From Candidatus Nealsonbacteria bacterium (GTDB taxonomy: Bacteria; Patescibacteriota; Minisyncoccia; Minisyncoccales; MHMH01): a stretch of 64,000 nt of DNA. Numbering within the stretch: position 1 is the first letter of the stretch; the number at the start of each line of letters is the position of its first letter. The stretch is from the NCBI GenBank assembly GCA_016188865.1, contig JACPGX010000001.1, positions 205,197-269,196 on the forward strand, written 5' to 3'. The notes under the pieces are model-generated. The model saw only the letters and a list, made by a program, of their open reading frames with translations, ran no database searches and was not told the origin of the DNA. Both the position numbers and the translations under genes were made by a program. Positions 1 to 57,621 of the stretch are shown here, one piece after another.

Positions 1-43
1 AAAATAATAAACAGTAGATACACTGCTGCGCCTAATTTTCTCA
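1..43 (-). CDS. 5' end of an unidentified CDS leaving the window (GTG start; VRKLGAAVYLLFII...)
   Basis: AGGAGG lies 5 nt upstream of GTG (41-43). N-terminus is hydrophobic. Promoter at 89-117. Only 14 codons are visible. Confidence 0.3.
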
Positions 44-22535: not shown

Positions 22536-22575
22536 GTGCTTCCACTATTATAACAAAGTGATAAAATAAAACAAT

Positions 22576-23079: not shown

Positions 23080-23110
23080 AAAAAGCTGAGGCGTTAACCT
23101 CGGCTTTTTT
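23080..23110. terminator. Bidirectional terminator between pth (+) and the 23120-23353 gene (-)
   Basis: aaaaagctgagg..cctcggctttttt, with A/T runs on both sides. Confidence 0.7.
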
Positions 23111-23119
23111 GTTTTGCCT

Positions 23120-23353
23120 CTAGTCGGTTGTTCCCTCGCTTCCCATGCCTGTTGGTTGCCTTACGGTCTTTTCTTCTATAATATCGCCAATATTGGCAAT
23201 AACGCTTTCTCTCAAATCAGTACTGCCGCATTCCGGACAAGGGCCTTCATGCGATAAGGGCAGTATCATGCCGCACTCGCAGAGTTTTCCTCCAATATGG
23301 GAAACAACTTGGCCATCAGCTCTGATAACTCGGTATTTTTGCTCATTAGCCAT
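23120..23353 (-). CDS. Small zinc-ribbon protein
   Basis: CxC..CPEC pattern, with a strong AAGGAGG RBS. Confidence 0.6.
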   Translation of the reverse strand: MANEQKYRVIRADGQVVSHIGGKLCECGMILPLSHEGPCPECGSTDLRESVIANIGDIIEEKTVRQPTGMGSEGTTD

Positions 23354-23370: not shown

Positions 23371-23796
23371 TTATTTTCTCAGCTTTCTTAAAAGTTCTTG
23401 GGCCATTCCTCGCTGAATGCCGTATATATCAAAGTTCTTATCATAGATAATTTTGCAAGGAAACCACTGGGCATCCAGAATTTCATCTGGGTCTATTTTT
23501 ATCGTTCCCGGAGTAGGATAGCCGATGAAAGCGACTTTTAAATAATCTTTCTGCCTTCTTTCTACCCTTATTCGCGAATTAACTTCCGGAAAAATGCCGA
23601 TTTCATGTAGAACCTCTCTTTCTGCTACAGCAATTTCGTCTTTGTCTTGAGGCTCACCTCTGCCTCCGGACATTCCCCACTTAGACGGCTTTGGAAAAGT
23701 TTCACCGTTCGGCTTTGTGATTAGTTTCTCCTTTTCCAGTACAAAGAGAATTTGATTATCATCAAGCATCAGCACTTTCACATCAATATCTTCCAT
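23371..23796 (-). CDS. NUDIX hydrolase
   Basis: Nudix box GGRGEPQDKDEIAVAEREVLHEIG. Confidence 0.85.
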   Translation of the reverse strand: MEDIDVKVLMLDDNQILFVLEKEKLITKPNGETFPKPSKWGMSGGRGEPQDKDEIAVAEREVLHEIGIFPEVNSRIRVERRQKDYLKVAFIGYPTPGTIKIDPDEILDAQWFPCKIIYDKNFDIYGIQRGMAQELLRKLRK

Positions 23797-23973
23797 TTTC
23801 CGCCTCCCTTAATCTACCCGCGAGACCGCAGTGATTTGAAGGCGCATAAAGCGCCTTGCCGCGAAGAGTCCTGGGATTCTTAATCCCATACCCGGCCTTC
23901 TAGACTTAAAGTATCGTCCAGAATACCACTCGCGAGCAGGTTAAGGAAAGGGAAATTTTGACAAGTTGCTAAC
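23797..23973 (-). promoter_or_regulatory. ~175-nt GC-rich structured 5' leader of the NUDIX operon (candidate riboswitch or regulatory RNA, unclassified)
   Basis: 8-bp closing helix CUCGCGAG/CUCGCGGG encloses three hairpins, including GGGAUU-AAG-AAUCCC and AAGGCGC-UUUAU-GCGCCUU. The RBS AAGGGAGG follows directly. Confidence 0.4.
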
Positions 23974-24009
23974 TGTGTACTATATATCACATATAGATGG
24001 AAAAGTCAA
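23958..24009. promoter_or_regulatory. Face-to-face promoters sharing one palindromic -10 box: TTGACA-17-TATATA-17-AGTCAA
   Basis: Plus strand: -35 at 23958-63 and -10 at 23981-86, driving mfd (ATG 23997). Minus strand: -35 is revcomp of 24004-09 with the same -10, driving the NUDIX leader. Confidence 0.55.
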
Positions 24010-26024
24010 CGGTGCCGGGTGTTAAATCGATTCTAATCGTCAGTATCAACCCCTACTTTTTAGACAGGGAGAATTTTTGGTTTGAAGAAAATATCAAACA
24101 AATACTGGAAGCGCGGAAAAATCAAACCTTCTTTCAAGATAATACCATATATGTAGACGTAGAAAAAAGCCCCGCCTTCGCCAAGGCTTCGGCGGGCAAG
24201 CAGAAAATTAAGCTTTCTGAATTTTTAAGAAAAATTGATGAAATGGGCTATGAAAAAGTTCAAAAGGTCTCCGAGCCCGGAGAATTTTCCCGCCAAGGAG
24301 GAATTATTGATATTTTCCCGTTAAATATAAATTGTGCCGTTAGAATTGAATTTTTCGGCAACTCAATAGAAAACATGGAAAAACTGCCCATTATTATTGA
24401 AAATGAAAAAGAAATCAAAGAAAGAATAAAAAATAAACTGAAAAGGCAGAAAATTTACTCGCAATTGGGAACATTAAAGCCGGGTGATTATTTGGTGCAT
24501 CTAGACCACGGCGTCGGAATTTACAGAGGTCGGACCTCCCAAGGAGGTCCGACCTCAAACGACTCAAACGATTACTACACATTGGAATATGCCCAGAACG
24601 ATAAACTCTATGTTCCGATTGGGCTGGAAAGAAAACTTTCAAGATATGTTGGATTTTCAGAGCCGAAAATATCGCGGCTAAGCTCGCCCGTCTGGATAAA
24701 CACCAAAAGAAAAATTAAAGAAGAAACTGAAAAACTAGCTAAAGAACTTTTGGAAATTTACGCCCAGAGAGAAATTTCAACTCGCCCATATTATATAGAA
24801 GATACGGAAATTGACGCCTTGCTGGCAAGTACTTTTGTTCACGAAGAAACTCCGGATCAAATCCAAGCCATGGAAGAAATTAAAAAAGATTTGGAAGAAA
24901 AAGAAGAGCCAATGGACAGAATTGTTTGCGGCGACGTGGGTTTTGGCAAAACTGAAATTGCCTTAAGGACCATTATTAAAGCGGTCAATTCCGGATATCA
25001 ATCGGCTTTGATTTGCCCAACCACTATTTTGGCCTCGCAGCATTGCCAGACTTTCCAAAAAAGAATTGGTGATCTTCCGATAAAAGTTGAATTATTAAGC
25101 CGTCTTCAATCAAAGAGGGAGCAGAAACAAATAATTCAAAATATCAAAGATGGCAAAACAGATATCGTTATAGGAACCCACCGCCTTTTATCAAATGACG
25201 TTAACTTTAAAAACTTAGGATTGCTGGTTATTGACGATGAACAAAGATTCGGAGTCAGGCAGAAAGAAAAATTAAAAAAAATAAGGACTTCCCTAGATGT
25301 TTTATCGCTTTCAGCCACGCCAATTCCCAGAACCCTCTACTTGGCCATGTCTTCTTTAAAAGATATCAGCATAATTCAAACGCCGCCTGCTCAACGGCTT
25401 CCGATTAAAACTTTGGTAAAACCATGGTCAAAAGAAATCATTAAAAAGGCAATTCAGGAAGAAATTTCGCGCAACGGCCAAGTTTATTACCTGCACAATC
25501 GCGTAGAAACTATTGAAACAGCAAAAAAATTGCTGGAAGATTTACTGCCGAAAGTAAAATTTGGAATTATCCACGGCAAAATGGAAGAAAAAAATTTAAT
25601 AAAGATAATGGATGATTTTACCAATAAAAAAATTGGCGTTTTAATCGCTACCACCATTATTGAAAACGGCCTGGACCTGCCCAATGTCAACACTTTAATT
25701 GCGGCCAATGCCGCCAAACTCGGACTTTCCCAGGCATATCAAATAAGAGGCAGAATCGGCAGGTCGCACATTCAGGCATTCGCTTATTTCTTGCATGGCG
25801 GCAATCTTTCTGAGCTAGCAAAGGAAAGATTAAGAGCTTTAAAAGAGGCGGAAGAGCTTGGTTCGGGATACCGAATTGCCATGAAAGATTTGGAACTTCG
25901 GGGCGCCGGCAACATTCTAGGAAAAGAGCAATCAGGCAACATCAACCATGTGGGACTGAATCTATATTGTCAAATGTTATCCGATGCGATTGAAAAACTG
26001 AAGGCTTACGATTATAATAAATAA
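23997..26024 (+). CDS. mfd: Transcription-repair coupling factor Mfd (short form, 675 aa)
   Basis: RNAP-interaction module PGDYLVHLDHGVGIY, helicase motifs DVGFGKTE and DDEQRFG, and a TRG-like region. Confidence 0.9.
   Translation: MEKSTVPGVKSILIVSINPYFLDRENFWFEENIKQILEARKNQTFFQDNTIYVDVEKSPAFAKASAGKQKIKLSEFLRKIDEMGYEKVQKVSEPGEFSRQGGIIDIFPLNINCAVRIEFFGNSIENMEKLPIIIENEKEIKERIKNKLKRQKIYSQLGTLKPGDYLVHLDHGVGIYRGRTSQGGPTSNDSNDYYTLEYAQNDKLYVPIGLERKLSRYVGFSEPKISRLSSPVWINTKRKIKEETEKLAKELLEIYAQREISTRPYYIEDTEIDALLASTFVHEETPDQIQAMEEIKKDLEEKEEPMDRIVCGDVGFGKTEIALRTIIKAVNSGYQSALICPTTILASQHCQTFQKRIGDLPIKVELLSRLQSKREQKQIIQNIKDGKTDIVIGTHRLLSNDVNFKNLGLLVIDDEQRFGVRQKEKLKKIRTSLDVLSLSATPIPRTLYLAMSSLKDISIIQTPPAQRLPIKTLVKPWSKEIIKKAIQEEISRNGQVYYLHNRVETIETAKKLLEDLLPKVKFGIIHGKMEEKNLIKIMDDFTNKKIGVLIATTIIENGLDLPNVNTLIAANAAKLGLSQAYQIRGRIGRSHIQAFAYFLHGGNLSELAKERLRALKEAEELGSGYRIAMKDLELRGAGNILGKEQSGNINHVGLNLYCQMLSDAIEKLKAYDYNK
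24526..24556. repeat. PE hairpin element, short-loop copy in-frame in mfd (gaggtcggacctcc-caa-ggaggtccgacctc)
   Basis: 14-bp perfect stem translated RGRTSQGGPTS. The arm sequence matches the copies at 9026 and 34384. Confidence 0.9.
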
Positions 26025-26030
26025 ATTATC

Positions 26031-26057
26031 AATCTTACGAGGCGAAGCCTCGTAAAT
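26031..26057. repeat. REP-2 hairpin, 5'-flank copy (ttacgaggc-gaa-gcctcgtaa)
   Basis: Lies 12 nt upstream of the RAYT-2 ATG. Confidence 0.9.
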
Positions 26058-26069
26058 TCGTAAATTTTA

Positions 26070-26783
26070 ATGAAGAGAGTAATATTCGCCAAAGATCAAA
26101 TCTATCATGTTTATAATCGCGGTGTAGAAAAACGAAATATCTTTTTAGATGATAAAGATTATTTTCGGTTTATTCACAATCTCTTTGAATTTAACGATGA
26201 AAAACCAGCAGAAAATATTTATTATAAACAACCAATGCTTCAGTCGCAGAAAATACAATCTTACGAGGCTTCGCCTCGTAAGATTAATATGCCTAGAAAA
26301 TTACTAGTAGAAATTATGGCATTTTGTCTGATGCCCAATCACTATCATTTATTGCTAAGACAAAAACAAGATAGGGGGATCACCAGATTTATGCAAAAAT
26401 TAGGTACTGGATATTCTATGTATTTTAATCAAAAGCACGAAAGAACCGGAATTTTATTCCAGGGACCGTTCAAGGCCATTTTAGTCGATAGGGAAACTTA
26501 TTTTTATTATTTACCATATTACATTCACTTTAATCCCCTAGATTTGATTGAGCCAGAATGGAGAAATGGCAAAATTAATAATTACAAAGAAGCCTTAAAT
26601 TTTCTGGAAAATTATCGCTGGTCAAGCCATCTTGATTATATTGGCAAGAAAAATTTTCCCTCGGTGACCCAACGGGAATTTCTTTTAGAATACCATCAAA
26701 ATGGAAACCGATATAAACAATCTATTGAAAATTGGCTAAAAGAAATACAACTAGAAAAAATAAAAGATATAATGCTGGAATAA
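26070..26783 (+). CDS. REP-associated tyrosine transposase-like protein (IS200/Y1 HUH family), paralog 2
   Basis: DQIYHVYNRG, FCLMPNHYHLLL, YYIHFNP. Confidence 0.85.
   Translation: MKRVIFAKDQIYHVYNRGVEKRNIFLDDKDYFRFIHNLFEFNDEKPAENIYYKQPMLQSQKIQSYEASPRKINMPRKLLVEIMAFCLMPNHYHLLLRQKQDRGITRFMQKLGTGYSMYFNQKHERTGILFQGPFKAILVDRETYFYYLPYYIHFNPLDLIEPEWRNGKINNYKEALNFLENYRWSSHLDYIGKKNFPSVTQREFLLEYHQNGNRYKQSIENWLKEIQLEKIKDIMLE
26257..26285. repeat. REP-2 hairpin, internal in-frame copy (loop inverted: ttc)
   Basis: aatcttacgaggc-ttc-gcctcgtaagatt, translated QSYEASPRKI. Confidence 0.9.
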
Positions 26784-26811
26784 ATCTTACGAGGCGAAGC
26801 CTCGTAAGATT
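26783..26811. repeat. REP-2 hairpin, 3'-flank copy
   Basis: aatcttacgaggc-gaa-gcctcgtaagatt, starting at the last base of the stop codon. Confidence 0.9.
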
Positions 26812-50576: not shown

Positions 50577-50607
50577 AAAACTGACGAGAACCGTTCTCGT
50601 CAGTTTT
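50577..50607. repeat. REP-3 hairpin, 3'-flank copy (aaaactgacgagaac-c-gttctcgtcagtttt)
   Basis: Ends one base before the RAYT-3 stop codon. Preceded by a partial duplicate, ctgacgaaaa. Confidence 0.9.
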
Positions 50608-51333
50608 TTATTCGATGGCAACACGTTGAGAATCAGCTAATTCTTTTTTGAACTGAAGCCAATCGTTAACGAATCTTTGCCCTTCGCCCGCTCCGCCGAC
50701 TGTTTCAAATAAAAACTCTCTGCTGGTTACTGAAGGAAAATTCCTCTTGCCTAAATAGTCAGAATAACTTGACCATCGGTAATTTTCTAAAAATTCTATT
50801 ATTTCTTGCAATTTCCTGCCGCTAATTCCCCTTTCCTTCCAATTCTGAACTAAAATTGCCACTGGGTTTGTATGAATATAAACGAAAACTGTTATTAATT
50901 GTTTATCATCTTTAACGTGGACTATTTTATATTTTCCCTGAAACAGGTGGCCACTTCTTTTATATTTTTTATTATAATATCCGCCGTATCCCGCCCCAAT
51001 TTTTCTCATAAACTTGCTTATTCCTCCATTTCTTAACTGTCTTACCAGCAGATGCGCGTGATTCGGCATCAAACAAAACGCTAAAATCTCCAATAAACAT
51101 TCCCTGCCCGTATGTCTTTTATACGAACTATCTAAACTGACGAGAACGGTTCTCGTCAGTTTTTGTTCTTGACGATAGTATGAAGAAGTAGGTTTTTCAT
51201 CATTGAATTCAAATAAATCATGAATCATTCTAAAATAATCTTTTTGATCTTTGAAAAGCTTTAACCCTTCTACGGCTCTAATAACGATGTGATAAATTTC
51301 GCCGTTTACTAATGGTGGTCGTTTTATTGGCAT
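50608..51333 (-). CDS. REP-associated tyrosine transposase-like protein (IS200/Y1 HUH family), paralog 3
   Basis: GEIYHIVIRA, FCLMPNHAHLLV, VYIHTNP. Confidence 0.85.
   Translation of the reverse strand: MPIKRPPLVNGEIYHIVIRAVEGLKLFKDQKDYFRMIHDLFEFNDEKPTSSYYRQEQKLTRTVLVSLDSSYKRHTGRECLLEILAFCLMPNHAHLLVRQLRNGGISKFMRKIGAGYGGYYNKKYKRSGHLFQGKYKIVHVKDDKQLITVFVYIHTNPVAILVQNWKERGISGRKLQEIIEFLENYRWSSYSDYLGKRNFPSVTSREFLFETVGGAGEGQRFVNDWLQFKKELADSQRVAIE
51134..51162. repeat. REP-3 hairpin, internal in-frame copy (centre g)
   Basis: aaactgacgagaac-g-gttctcgtcagttt, translated KLTRTVLVSL. Confidence 0.9.
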
Positions 51334-51364
51334 AAAACTGACGAGAACCGTTCTCGTCAGTTTT
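51334..51364. repeat. REP-3 hairpin, 5'-flank copy
   Basis: Starts at the base next to the ATG (51331-33), leaving no room for an SD sequence. Confidence 0.9.
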
Positions 51365-52846: not shown

Positions 52847-53983
52847 TTACTTTAAAAATTTTCTTGAAAGAACTTCCAGCTGGACTTCGGAGGCGCCTTC
52901 ATAAAGAGTTAAAGCTCTGGCGTCGCGGAACATTCTCTCAACCGGAGTTTCATCCATGTAGCCCATGCCGCCGTGAATCTGTAAAGCGTCATAAGTTATT
53001 TTCTGAACCATCTCGGTGGCAAACCATTTGGCTCTGGCTGCAGCCAATTTGACATCATGGCCTTGGTCTTTTTGCCAGGCAGCATACCAGGTAAGCCAAC
53101 GGCTGGCTTCAATTTGGGCTTCCATTTTAGCTAATTTATGCTGGCAATCTTGAAGATCAATCAATCTCTTGCCAAACATCTGACGATTTCTGGCGTAGTT
53201 TACGGCTTCTTCAAAAGCGCCTTGAGCTATACCTACGGCTTGGGCCGCGATATTGATTCTGCCGCCATTTAAAGTCTGCATAGCCACTTTCCAGCCGTCG
53301 CCTTCCTGGCCAAGCATATTGGCATGGCTGACTTGGCAGTCAGTCAAAACTATCGGGGAAGTCGGCGAACAGTGAAGCCCCATTTTCTTTTCAATTTTCG
53401 GCACTGAAAATCCCGGAGTGGAAGTTTCCACGATGAAAGCGGAAAGCCCATGATGAGGATGATCGCTGGTTCTGGCTATTAAAACGCAAACTTTCGCTTT
53501 AGCGACATTGGTAATGAATTGCTTGGTACCATTAATCACCCAACCATTATCATTTCTTACAGCCCGAGTTTTGATTCTCGTCACATCAGAGCCGGCATCC
53601 GGCTCTGTTAAAGCATAACATCCCAATGCCTTGCCTTGAGCCAAAGAAGCAAGATATTTCTTTTTTTGATCTTCATTGCCCCACTCCAAAATGGGAGCTC
53701 CGGATAAGGAATTATTGGCTGACATAATCAAAGCAAGCGAAGCCCAAACTCTGGCCAACTCTTCTTCGGCAATGGCATAAGCTAAAATATCCGAGCCCAT
53801 GCCGCCGTACTGCTCTGGAACAAATATACCCATAAAGCCCATTTCGCCGAGTTTTTCAACAAGCTCTTTGGGAAATTTTCCTTTTTCTTCAAATTCTTTA
53901 ATCCTTGGCCTGACTTCTTTTTCGGCAAATTCTCTCATCAAGTTGCGGATACCCGCATGCTCTTCCGACAACCGAAAATCCAT
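52847..53983 (-). CDS. Acyl-CoA dehydrogenase
   Basis: YALTEPDAGSD, and QIHGGMGY..YEGASEVQ. Confidence 0.93.
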   Translation of the reverse strand: MDFRLSEEHAGIRNLMREFAEKEVRPRIKEFEEKGKFPKELVEKLGEMGFMGIFVPEQYGGMGSDILAYAIAEEELARVWASLALIMSANNSLSGAPILEWGNEDQKKKYLASLAQGKALGCYALTEPDAGSDVTRIKTRAVRNDNGWVINGTKQFITNVAKAKVCVLIARTSDHPHHGLSAFIVETSTPGFSVPKIEKKMGLHCSPTSPIVLTDCQVSHANMLGQEGDGWKVAMQTLNGGRINIAAQAVGIAQGAFEEAVNYARNRQMFGKRLIDLQDCQHKLAKMEAQIEASRWLTWYAAWQKDQGHDVKLAAARAKWFATEMVQKITYDALQIHGGMGYMDETPVERMFRDARALTLYEGASEVQLEVLSRKFLK

Positions 53984-57590: not shown

Positions 57591-57621
57591 AAAACTGACG
57601 AGAACCATTCTCGGCAGTTTT
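57591..57621. repeat. REP-3 hairpin, solo degenerate copy (two mismatches) acting as a terminator
   Basis: aaaactgacgagaac-c-attctcggcagtttt. Confidence 0.8.

Follow-up and report, generated by a model that had tools for sequence, protein, structure and literature searches.

The subject of this analysis is a 52-bp site at positions 23958-24009 of a 64,000-nucleotide stretch of DNA (hereafter the window) from a Candidatus Nealsonbacteria-like bacterium of the candidate phyla radiation (CPR). It covers the start of the rightward gene mfd, which encodes a transcription-repair coupling factor, and faces a leftward transcription unit. We consider it likely that this site is a compact bidirectional promoter of the sigma70 type, with start sites and -10 registers deduced from the letters. 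By its sequence, the layout belongs to an already described class of bidirectional promoters, of which the site is an unusually well-conserved new case. The arrangement TTGACA-17-TATATA-17-AGTCAA, pointed out in an earlier sequence-only reading, can be read directly from the window and is exact. When TTGACW-17-TATATA-17-WGTCAA is searched for with at most two mismatches, this site is the sole match in the window, and dinucleotide shuffles give an expectation of 0.02 per window. There is something to be transcribed on both sides: a covarying, strand-specific RNA lies 8-30 nt past the -10 region to the left, and the mfd open reading frame (ORF) lies 10 nt past it to the right.

In the rightward direction, polymerase would use TTGACA together with the central A/T block, and would initiate either at the mfd ATG itself or a few nucleotides upstream of it. 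This ATG (23997-23999) is separated from the TATATA hexamer by 10 nt. In the leftward direction, it would use TTGACT, which is embedded in mfd codons 3-5, together with TGaTATATA in the same block, and would start near 23974. The resulting transcript would carry the structured RNA followed, in this lineage, by genes for a NUDIX hydrolase and a 77-aa protein, and would end at the terminator at 23080-23109. Each -35 element falls inside the region transcribed from the opposite promoter. The two polymerase sites would overlap almost fully, such that only one polymerase could be bound at a time, and measurable inverse coupling would depend on promoter occupancy.

The match to the sigma70 consensus is 10 of 12 positions on the plus strand, with a 17-bp spacer but with A at hexamer position 6. 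On the minus strand it is 9 of 12, also with a 17-bp spacer, plus a TG dinucleotide, so the full leftward promoter reads TTGACT-14-TGa-TATATA, i.e. it has an extended -10 element. The description of the mfd promoter as near-consensus is therefore apt for its -35 element and spacer, but not for its -10 element. Alternative -10 registers are TATATC (23983-23988) on the plus strand and TATAGT (the reverse complement of 23979-23984) on the minus strand, each of which leaves a 19-bp spacer.

Two sets of sequences were compared. The first comprises 16 loci (the window and 15 loci from GTDB) and the second comprises 52 distinct orthologous promoter sequences from GTDB genomes and metagenome contigs. 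About 50 of the 120 matches from a pattern scan of metagenomes are chance matches, and these were split off by a pairing test on the closing helix of the RNA described below, in which true matches form at least 18 of 20 pairs and chance matches at most 16 of 20. All relatives of this Mfd in GTDB genomes are found in metagenome-assembled genomes of CPR bacteria classified as Candidatus Nealsonbacteria or Parcubacteria, and these relatives have in common the gene order hisS-lepB-pth-(variable)-mfd-topA. The window and loci L001 and L019 form a sub-clade whose Mfd starts with MEKS and in which TATATA is kept exactly. The core of the other orthologues is mostly TATTATA(AT), which reads as TATTAT or TATAAT on the plus strand and TATAAT on the minus strand.

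The leftward -35 element is located at mfd nucleotides 8-13 in all 52 sequences, as TTGACA in 48, TTGACT in 3 (the window, L001 and L019) and TCGACA in 1. Its spacer is 17 bp in 38 sequences and 16 bp in 12, and the leftward -10 element is TATAAT in 45. Promoters among the orthologues reach 11 or 12 of 12 matches to the sigma70 consensus. The codons that overlap the -35 element are similarly restricted. All 49 leucines at mfd codon 3 are encoded by TTG, which accounts for 27% of leucine codons in the window ORFs, and TCA, which makes up 18.5% of serine codons, occupies codon 4 in 51 of 52 sequences. Residues 2, 5 and 6 are variable, and the information content falls to about zero beyond nucleotide 14. 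The frozen synonymous sites at codons 3 and 4, and the end of conservation at nucleotide 14, indicate that the constraint acts on the DNA rather than on the protein.

Several loci serve as natural controls or variants. At L003 and L012 a full-length mfd gene stands directly after pth, and neither gene carries the motif. At L092, where mfd is absent, the RNA is still preceded by TTGACA-18-TATAAT. At L002, L004, L013 and L019 the leftward promoter directly drives a protein gene without the RNA. At L002, L004 and L019 this gene encodes a secreted or membrane protein of about 200 aa (MKKLFW...), with a Shine-Dalgarno (SD) sequence about 30 nt from the predicted start. The gap between pth and mfd appears, from these sequences, to be a hotspot that places varied cargo under the leftward promoter.

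The rightward promoter is less uniform. Its -10 element is TATTAT in 21, TATAAT in 20 and TATACT in 4 of the 52 sequences, and it precedes the start codon by 7-11 nt except in L019, where the distance is 6 nt. These gaps are 8 nt (24 sequences), 10-11 nt (24), 7 nt (3) and 6 nt (1), and the window has a gap of 10 nt if TATATA is used or 8 nt if TATATC is used. The start codon is ATG in 47 sequences and GTG in 4, with ACG/TTG in L006. The rightward -35 element is more variable, with TTGACA in 21 sequences and a 5/6 match in 8, while 23 have no such element. Where present, in about half of the orthologues, TTGACA is located 16-18 bp upstream of the rightward -10 element. The 23 without a rightward -35 element comprise all 11 sequences in which the closing helix of the RNA is 30 bp from the ATG and occupies the -35 position, plus 12 others.

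A two-way intrinsic terminator follows pth, and so read-through from pth into mfd is not expected and mfd would need its own promoter within the 200-bp gap. In the window there is no SD sequence before the mfd ATG or before any in-frame start within the first 40 codons, nor is there one in any of the 16 sequences inspected (the window and 15 orthologues). A downstream mfd start preceded by an SD sequence was considered and rejected, because none exists within these 40 codons and alignments of Mfd homologues begin at residues 9-13. The proposal that mfd is leaderless thus stands in a slightly wider form: given the lack of an SD sequence and the nearly fixed position of the -10 element, the best reading is that the mfd mRNA is predicted to be leaderless or nearly so, with a leader of at most 6 nt.

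The initiation signals of the window as a whole are bimodal. An SD sequence is lacking for 39 of 62 window ORFs, while the remaining 23 have a strong one of the AAGGAGG type. Among the ORFs without an SD sequence, TANNNT ends 6-9 nt before the ATG in 12 cases, against a background of about 1 per position. This suggests that leaderless mRNAs are widespread in this CPR genome, and by the same signals a leaderless mfd is ordinary for the genome rather than special. Leaderless transcripts are familiar from the lambda cI mRNA made from PRM. Genome-wide, TANNNT about 12 bp upstream of the start codon is a signature of leaderless genes (Zheng et al. 2011, PMC3160421), and 60% of Deinococcus deserti mRNAs are leaderless (PMC4007540). 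Like known leaderless mRNAs, that of mfd has no SD sequence and would be initiated from a -10 element 7-11 nt before the ATG, as would those of many other window genes. Unlike the known cases, it belongs to a CPR lineage, Nealsonbacteria, and to a genome that mixes strong AAGGAGG SD sequences with SD-less starts. Our literature search found no report on leaderless genes in CPR bacteria.

The leftward product was originally described as a leader of the NUDIX gene. This description was not sustained: the product is mainly a conserved structured RNA, and the NUDIX gene is present only in the window and L001 among related loci. The minus strand of the window between 23976 and 23790 folds with a minimum free energy of -80.5 kcal/mol (z = -6.9), compared with z = -2.9 for the plus strand. 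Homologous RNAs occur at 11 GTDB loci and on about 70 metagenome contigs. In nearly every case they lie in the gap between pth and mfd, divergent from the latter. The architecture consists of a 21-bp closing helix (P1), a short helix (P1a) and hairpins P2, P3 and P4, which are arranged as nested three-way junctions. The P3 loop is a near-invariant AUCCCUCCU, and the 3' strand of P1 carries GGAGGG. In a 61-sequence alignment, 94.5% of cells are paired and 50 of 55 pairs exhibit compensatory changes; none of 500 shuffles is as good, and slid controls are 39-48% paired. A covariance model (R1) gives 74-178 bits for GTDB copies outside its training set and 35 bits for a partial copy in L011. The copies in the window and L001 score 44 bits (the window being part of the training alignment) and 65 bits, respectively. 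Scores on the plus strand are much lower than on the minus strand, and there is no second copy in the window. The case for a real structured RNA is therefore well supported by these sequence comparisons.

Searches of the window and 13 loci against Rfam 15 find no family for this RNA; only tRNAs reach the gathering score, and the region itself produces only noise at E values up to 10. A known riboswitch (e.g. ykkC subtype 2c, known for its association with NUDIX genes), 6S RNA and signal recognition particle RNA were rejected for lack of an Rfam match. Likewise, a NUDIX riboswitch fails as a general explanation, because a NUDIX gene follows the RNA in only two lineages and the downstream genes elsewhere differ or are absent. 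For this reason, we think that the RNA is most likely free-standing. A miniature inverted-repeat element with 21-bp arms was also rejected, because there is one copy per contig at a fixed locus, G-U pairs on one strand account for most departures from arm symmetry, and scores on the minus strand greatly exceed those on the plus strand. A small ORF within the RNA (AUG GAU UCU AAG UGA in some copies) was discarded because its frame is not conserved. Our literature search returned nothing relevant on an RNA motif associated with pth and mfd.

The P3 loop AUCCCUCCU resembles the canonical 3' tail of 16S ribosomal RNA, GAUCACCUCCUUA, although this canonical sequence may not be that of the present lineage. 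Small RNAs with C-rich loops that resemble anti-SD sequences include Staphylococcus RNAIII and RsaE, and the near-invariant hairpin loop of the new family is like theirs, by resemblance only. Unlike those RNAs, the family has a long 21-bp closing helix and nested three-way junctions, has no Rfam match, and has a member (the window copy) without the CCUCC loop. The window and L001 copies are divergent, and in them the CCUCC loop has been lost and the 3' strand of P1 doubles as the SD sequence of the NUDIX gene. Translation of this gene is consequently predicted, from the folded model, to be masked by a very stable helix.

Promoters of the class to which we assign the site are defined by mapped divergent starts 7-25 bp apart (Warman et al., bioRxiv 10.1101/2020.01.31.928960), whereas the separations given here are predicted from sequence. 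The starts of the window should be 19-21 bp apart, and for 50 of the 52 orthologues the predicted distance is 18 or 21 bp. In E. coli, the commonest distance between divergent starts is 18 bp; for proteobacteria and actinobacteria it is 18-19 bp, and such bidirectional sites make up 19% of E. coli start sites (bioRxiv 10.1101/2020.01.31.928960). The -10 elements overlap such that hexamer position 2 on one strand is paired with hexamer position 6 on the opposite strand (bioRxiv 10.1101/2020.01.31.928960). Most orthologues display this TANNNTA symmetry (A at position 2 facing T at position 6) as the symmetric 7-mer TATTATA. The window lacks it, and there the hexamers may coincide exactly as TATATA rather than adopt the preferred 18-bp register. 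In 50 of the 52 orthologues the hexamers on opposite strands are offset by +1 or -2 (TATTATA / TATTATAAT) and do not coincide. The single -10 hexamer that had been proposed to serve both directions is thus retained only as overlapping -10 regions, and an identical hexamer is not established, given A at -7 on both strands in the window and the offset hexamers of the orthologues. Similarly, overlapping opposed promoters are kept throughout the 52 orthologues, but the dyad is not the conserved unit, because the rightward -35 element is dispensable.

Examples of the class in E. coli are pfs/dgt, PacrA/acrR and PsoxS/soxR (Warman, Forrest, Wade, Grainger; NAR 2026, PMC12825309). The site resembles them in having opposed sigma70-type promoters, a common A/T-rich -10 block and predicted starts 18-21 bp apart. 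It departs from the tested E. coli examples, which have low basal activity, in that a perfect TTGACA at optimal spacing is often found in both directions. In addition, one -35 element is encoded within the first five codons of a divergent leaderless gene, and the arrangement is kept in 52 of 52 distinct orthologous sequences of a CPR lineage.

The leftward promoter also has a counterpart in the extended -10 promoters, which form the TGnTATAAT class. It reads TGnTATATA in the window, L001 and L019, and the neighbouring lepB and pth promoters have TGtTATAAT and TGaTAAAAT, respectively. Unlike extended -10 promoters that are independent of a -35 element, it additionally has a 5/6 match to the -35 consensus at 17 bp. 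When A at -7 and the alternative registers are weighed, TATATA is favoured as the leftward -10 register because TGnTATATA is kept on the minus strand in all three members of the sub-clade. The rightward register may be TATATA or TATATC.

The promoter grammar used here is consistent with the rest of the window. There are six TTGACA-16..18-TATAAT sites with at least 11 of 12 matches, and all six are intergenic (about 7% of the sequence) and upstream of genes on the same strand. By this measure, the organism follows the TTGACA/TATAAT consensus of sigma70. The 40-bp gap between lepB (minus strand) and pth (plus strand), at 22536-22575, contains two back-to-back extended -10 boxes. TGtTATAAT is 11 nt before the lepB ATG, TGaTAAAAT is 8 nt before the pth ATG, and neither gene has an SD sequence. 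This looks like a second divergent pair of leaderless genes, at which the polymerase sites must overlap if the boxes are used as they appear.

Several points weigh against the proposal of a bidirectional promoter. A coincident palindromic hexamer places A at -7 on both strands, and A at -7 is unfavourable given the contacts made by sigma region 2. Neither plus-strand register in the window (TATATA or TATATC) provides the key T at -7, and a generic promoter scanner called neither promoter, since it requires T at the last -10 position and TATATA ends in A. With its -35 element missing from 23 of 52 orthologues, the mfd promoter may be weak or may consist of a -10 element only. Judging from model bacteria, leaderless translation would be inefficient where the start codon is GTG (4 orthologues) or ACG/TTG (L006). 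Furthermore, the orthologue counts are phylogenetically non-independent, and the specificity of the CPR sigma factor is assumed to be like that in model bacteria, for which the six window sites are the sole basis.

From these points, one could argue that only the leftward promoter is functional, that the rightward TTGACA is fortuitous or residual, and that mfd is expressed from a weak promoter independent of a -35 element or from another start, maybe with a short unstructured leader. Such a scenario draws on the asymmetry between near-universal leftward elements and a rightward TTGACA found in 21 sequences and missing from 23, as well as on the lack of T at -7 on the plus strand of the window and the silence of the scanner. 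Nevertheless, we judge it unlikely. [quoted passage not shown] In sequences with 45-51 bp between the ATG and the RNA, TTGAC[ACGT] is found 16-18 bp from the -10 element in 14 of 15 cases (19 bp in one). Also, the scanner found no better plus-strand promoter between the pth terminator and the ATG.

The symmetry of the site invites two further explanations that do without paired promoters. One possibility is that the inverted repeat TTGACA...TGTCAA, with 40 bp between its half-sites, serves a dimeric or tetrameric transcription factor as its operator and does not represent a pair of -35 elements, given that the dyad is perfect or nearly so in the window and about half of the orthologues. This is very unlikely, because the left half-site is the dispensable one, each half-site has a -10-like hexamer at 16-18 bp on the same strand, the half-site is the same -35 consensus that marks intergenic promoters elsewhere in the window, and the right half-site is retained by the RNA at L092 without mfd. 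Even less credible is the idea that TTGTCAA is maintained by selection on the N-terminal peptide of Mfd (M-x-L-S-R/S), with the symmetry in the window being coincidental. Leu3 and Ser4 are indeed nearly invariant, but their synonymous codons are shunned while residues 2, 5 and 6 vary freely. Moreover, full-length mfd genes without a divergent neighbour (L003 and L012) lack the motif, and TTGACT persists on the opposite strand even in the three relatives that have Lys3 (AAG). The DNA of the site is clearly functional, and a bidirectional promoter remains the explanation that we prefer.

Table 1. Features at and near the bidirectional site, in window coordinates except where a locus is named.
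Feature	Position	Strand	Basis or remark
-35 of rightward (mfd) promoter, TTGACA	23958-23963	+	Read from sequence; within 5' tail of leftward transcript
17-nt spacer	23964-23980		Between TTGACA and TATATA; read from sequence
Palindromic TATATA, overlapping -10 region of both promoters	23981-23986	both	Read from sequence
17-nt spacer	23987-24003		Between TATATA and AGTCAA; read from sequence
-35 of leftward promoter, AGTCAA (reverse complement TTGACT)	24004-24009	-	Within mfd codons 3-5, ORF nt 8-13
TG of extended -10 (TGaTATATA), leftward promoter	23989-23988	-	Read from sequence
Predicted rightward transcription start zone	23991-23997	+	5-11 nt past TATATA; from the usual distance between -10 and start site
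Predicted leftward transcription start zone	23972-23976	-	Inferred; A 23974 is the 7th nt past the hexamer
mfd, short 675-aa transcription-repair coupling factor	23997-26024	+	Pfam UvrB_inter + CarD_TRCF_RID + DEAD + Helicase_C
Structured RNA, divergent family member, 5' untranslated region of NUDIX gene	23797-23952	-	Folding and covariance model R1
Typical members of the RNA family	L054:708-872, L021:3786-3950	-	About 156 nt
SD sequence of NUDIX gene, GGGAGG	23803-23808	-	Strong; inside 3' strand of RNA closing helix
NUDIX hydrolase, 141 aa, first leftward ORF	23371-23796	-	Pfam PF00293, E = 6.9e-9
77-aa ORF, second leftward ORF, strong SD	23120-23353	-	No Pfam/NCBIfam match; CxC...CPxC pattern
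Two-way intrinsic terminator	23080-23109	both	12-bp stem, T-run on +, match on -; ends pth (+) and leftward unit (-)

The genes that flank the site (Table 1) have some features of their own. The Mfd protein is short compared with the E. coli protein of about 1150 aa. It scores 787.6 bits against TIGR00580, for which the cut-off is 800, and the match spans positions 287-821 of the 907-position profile. The domain searches report no C-terminal TRCF domain, the N-terminal module is mostly missing, and all relatives found have the same short form. The 77-aa ORF of the leftward unit is possibly a zinc ribbon, judging from its cysteine pattern. The ribosome-binding context of the NUDIX gene, TAAGGGAGGCGGAA(A)ATG (23797-23812, minus strand), is also found upstream of an unrelated ORF at 52847-53983 (minus strand).

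Two families of repeats are present in the window. A 17-nt hairpin, ACGAGGCGAAGCCTCGT, has identical copies at 26037-26053, 26263-26279 (minus strand) and 26789-26805, i.e. three copies where 0.01 would be expected. The copies are located on both sides of an IS200-like Y1 transposase gene (26070-26783), with one inside it, a layout that resembles REP or IS200 elements. In L001 and L004, homologous transposase genes occupy the gap between pth and mfd. A 23-nt palindrome, CTGACGAGAACGGTTCTCGTCAG, occurs four times (50581-50603, 51137-51159, 51338-51360 and 57595-57617) where none is expected. Two of its copies directly precede gene starts, with T-runs after them, and on its sequence it is a repeated terminator-like or REP-like hairpin.

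If the bidirectional promoter functions as we propose, competition between its two arms is a natural consideration. Simultaneous binding of two polymerases is sterically excluded at such promoters, and the five that were tested in E. coli are too weak for basal competition, with inverse effects seen only when one direction is strongly activated (PMC12825309). Inverse coupling, which the earlier reading assumed, is a possibility only. Competition is plausible at the present site, since both arms are often consensus-like across the orthologues, although the -10 readings of the window itself are sub-optimal in both directions. Perhaps the site is a genuine competition switch, in which a strong leftward promoter limits transcription of mfd and the RNA, with AUCCCUCCU as a mimic of the 16S tail, tunes the balance between SD-dependent and leaderless translation. 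We regard this elaboration as quite improbable. If it were true, polymerase occupancy, Mfd dosage and translation mode would be linked via one 52-bp element, and the protein so limited would itself be a factor that removes stalled polymerases.

The RNA family absent from Rfam is the most novel item at this locus, and is probably more valuable than the promoter. The promoter, for its part, would represent a deeply conserved natural case of a recently described class, from CPR (Patescibacteria) organisms for which there is almost no information on promoters or transcripts. It suggests that CPR bacteria use the canonical TTGACA/TATAAT grammar, and that about 50 bp can hold two promoters and a start codon. 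It also indicates that the opening codons of a leaderless gene can be set by a -35 element. These features may help in the annotation of CPR genomes, both for start codons and for transcription units, and orthologues in which both arms are strong make the site a candidate test case for polymerase competition.

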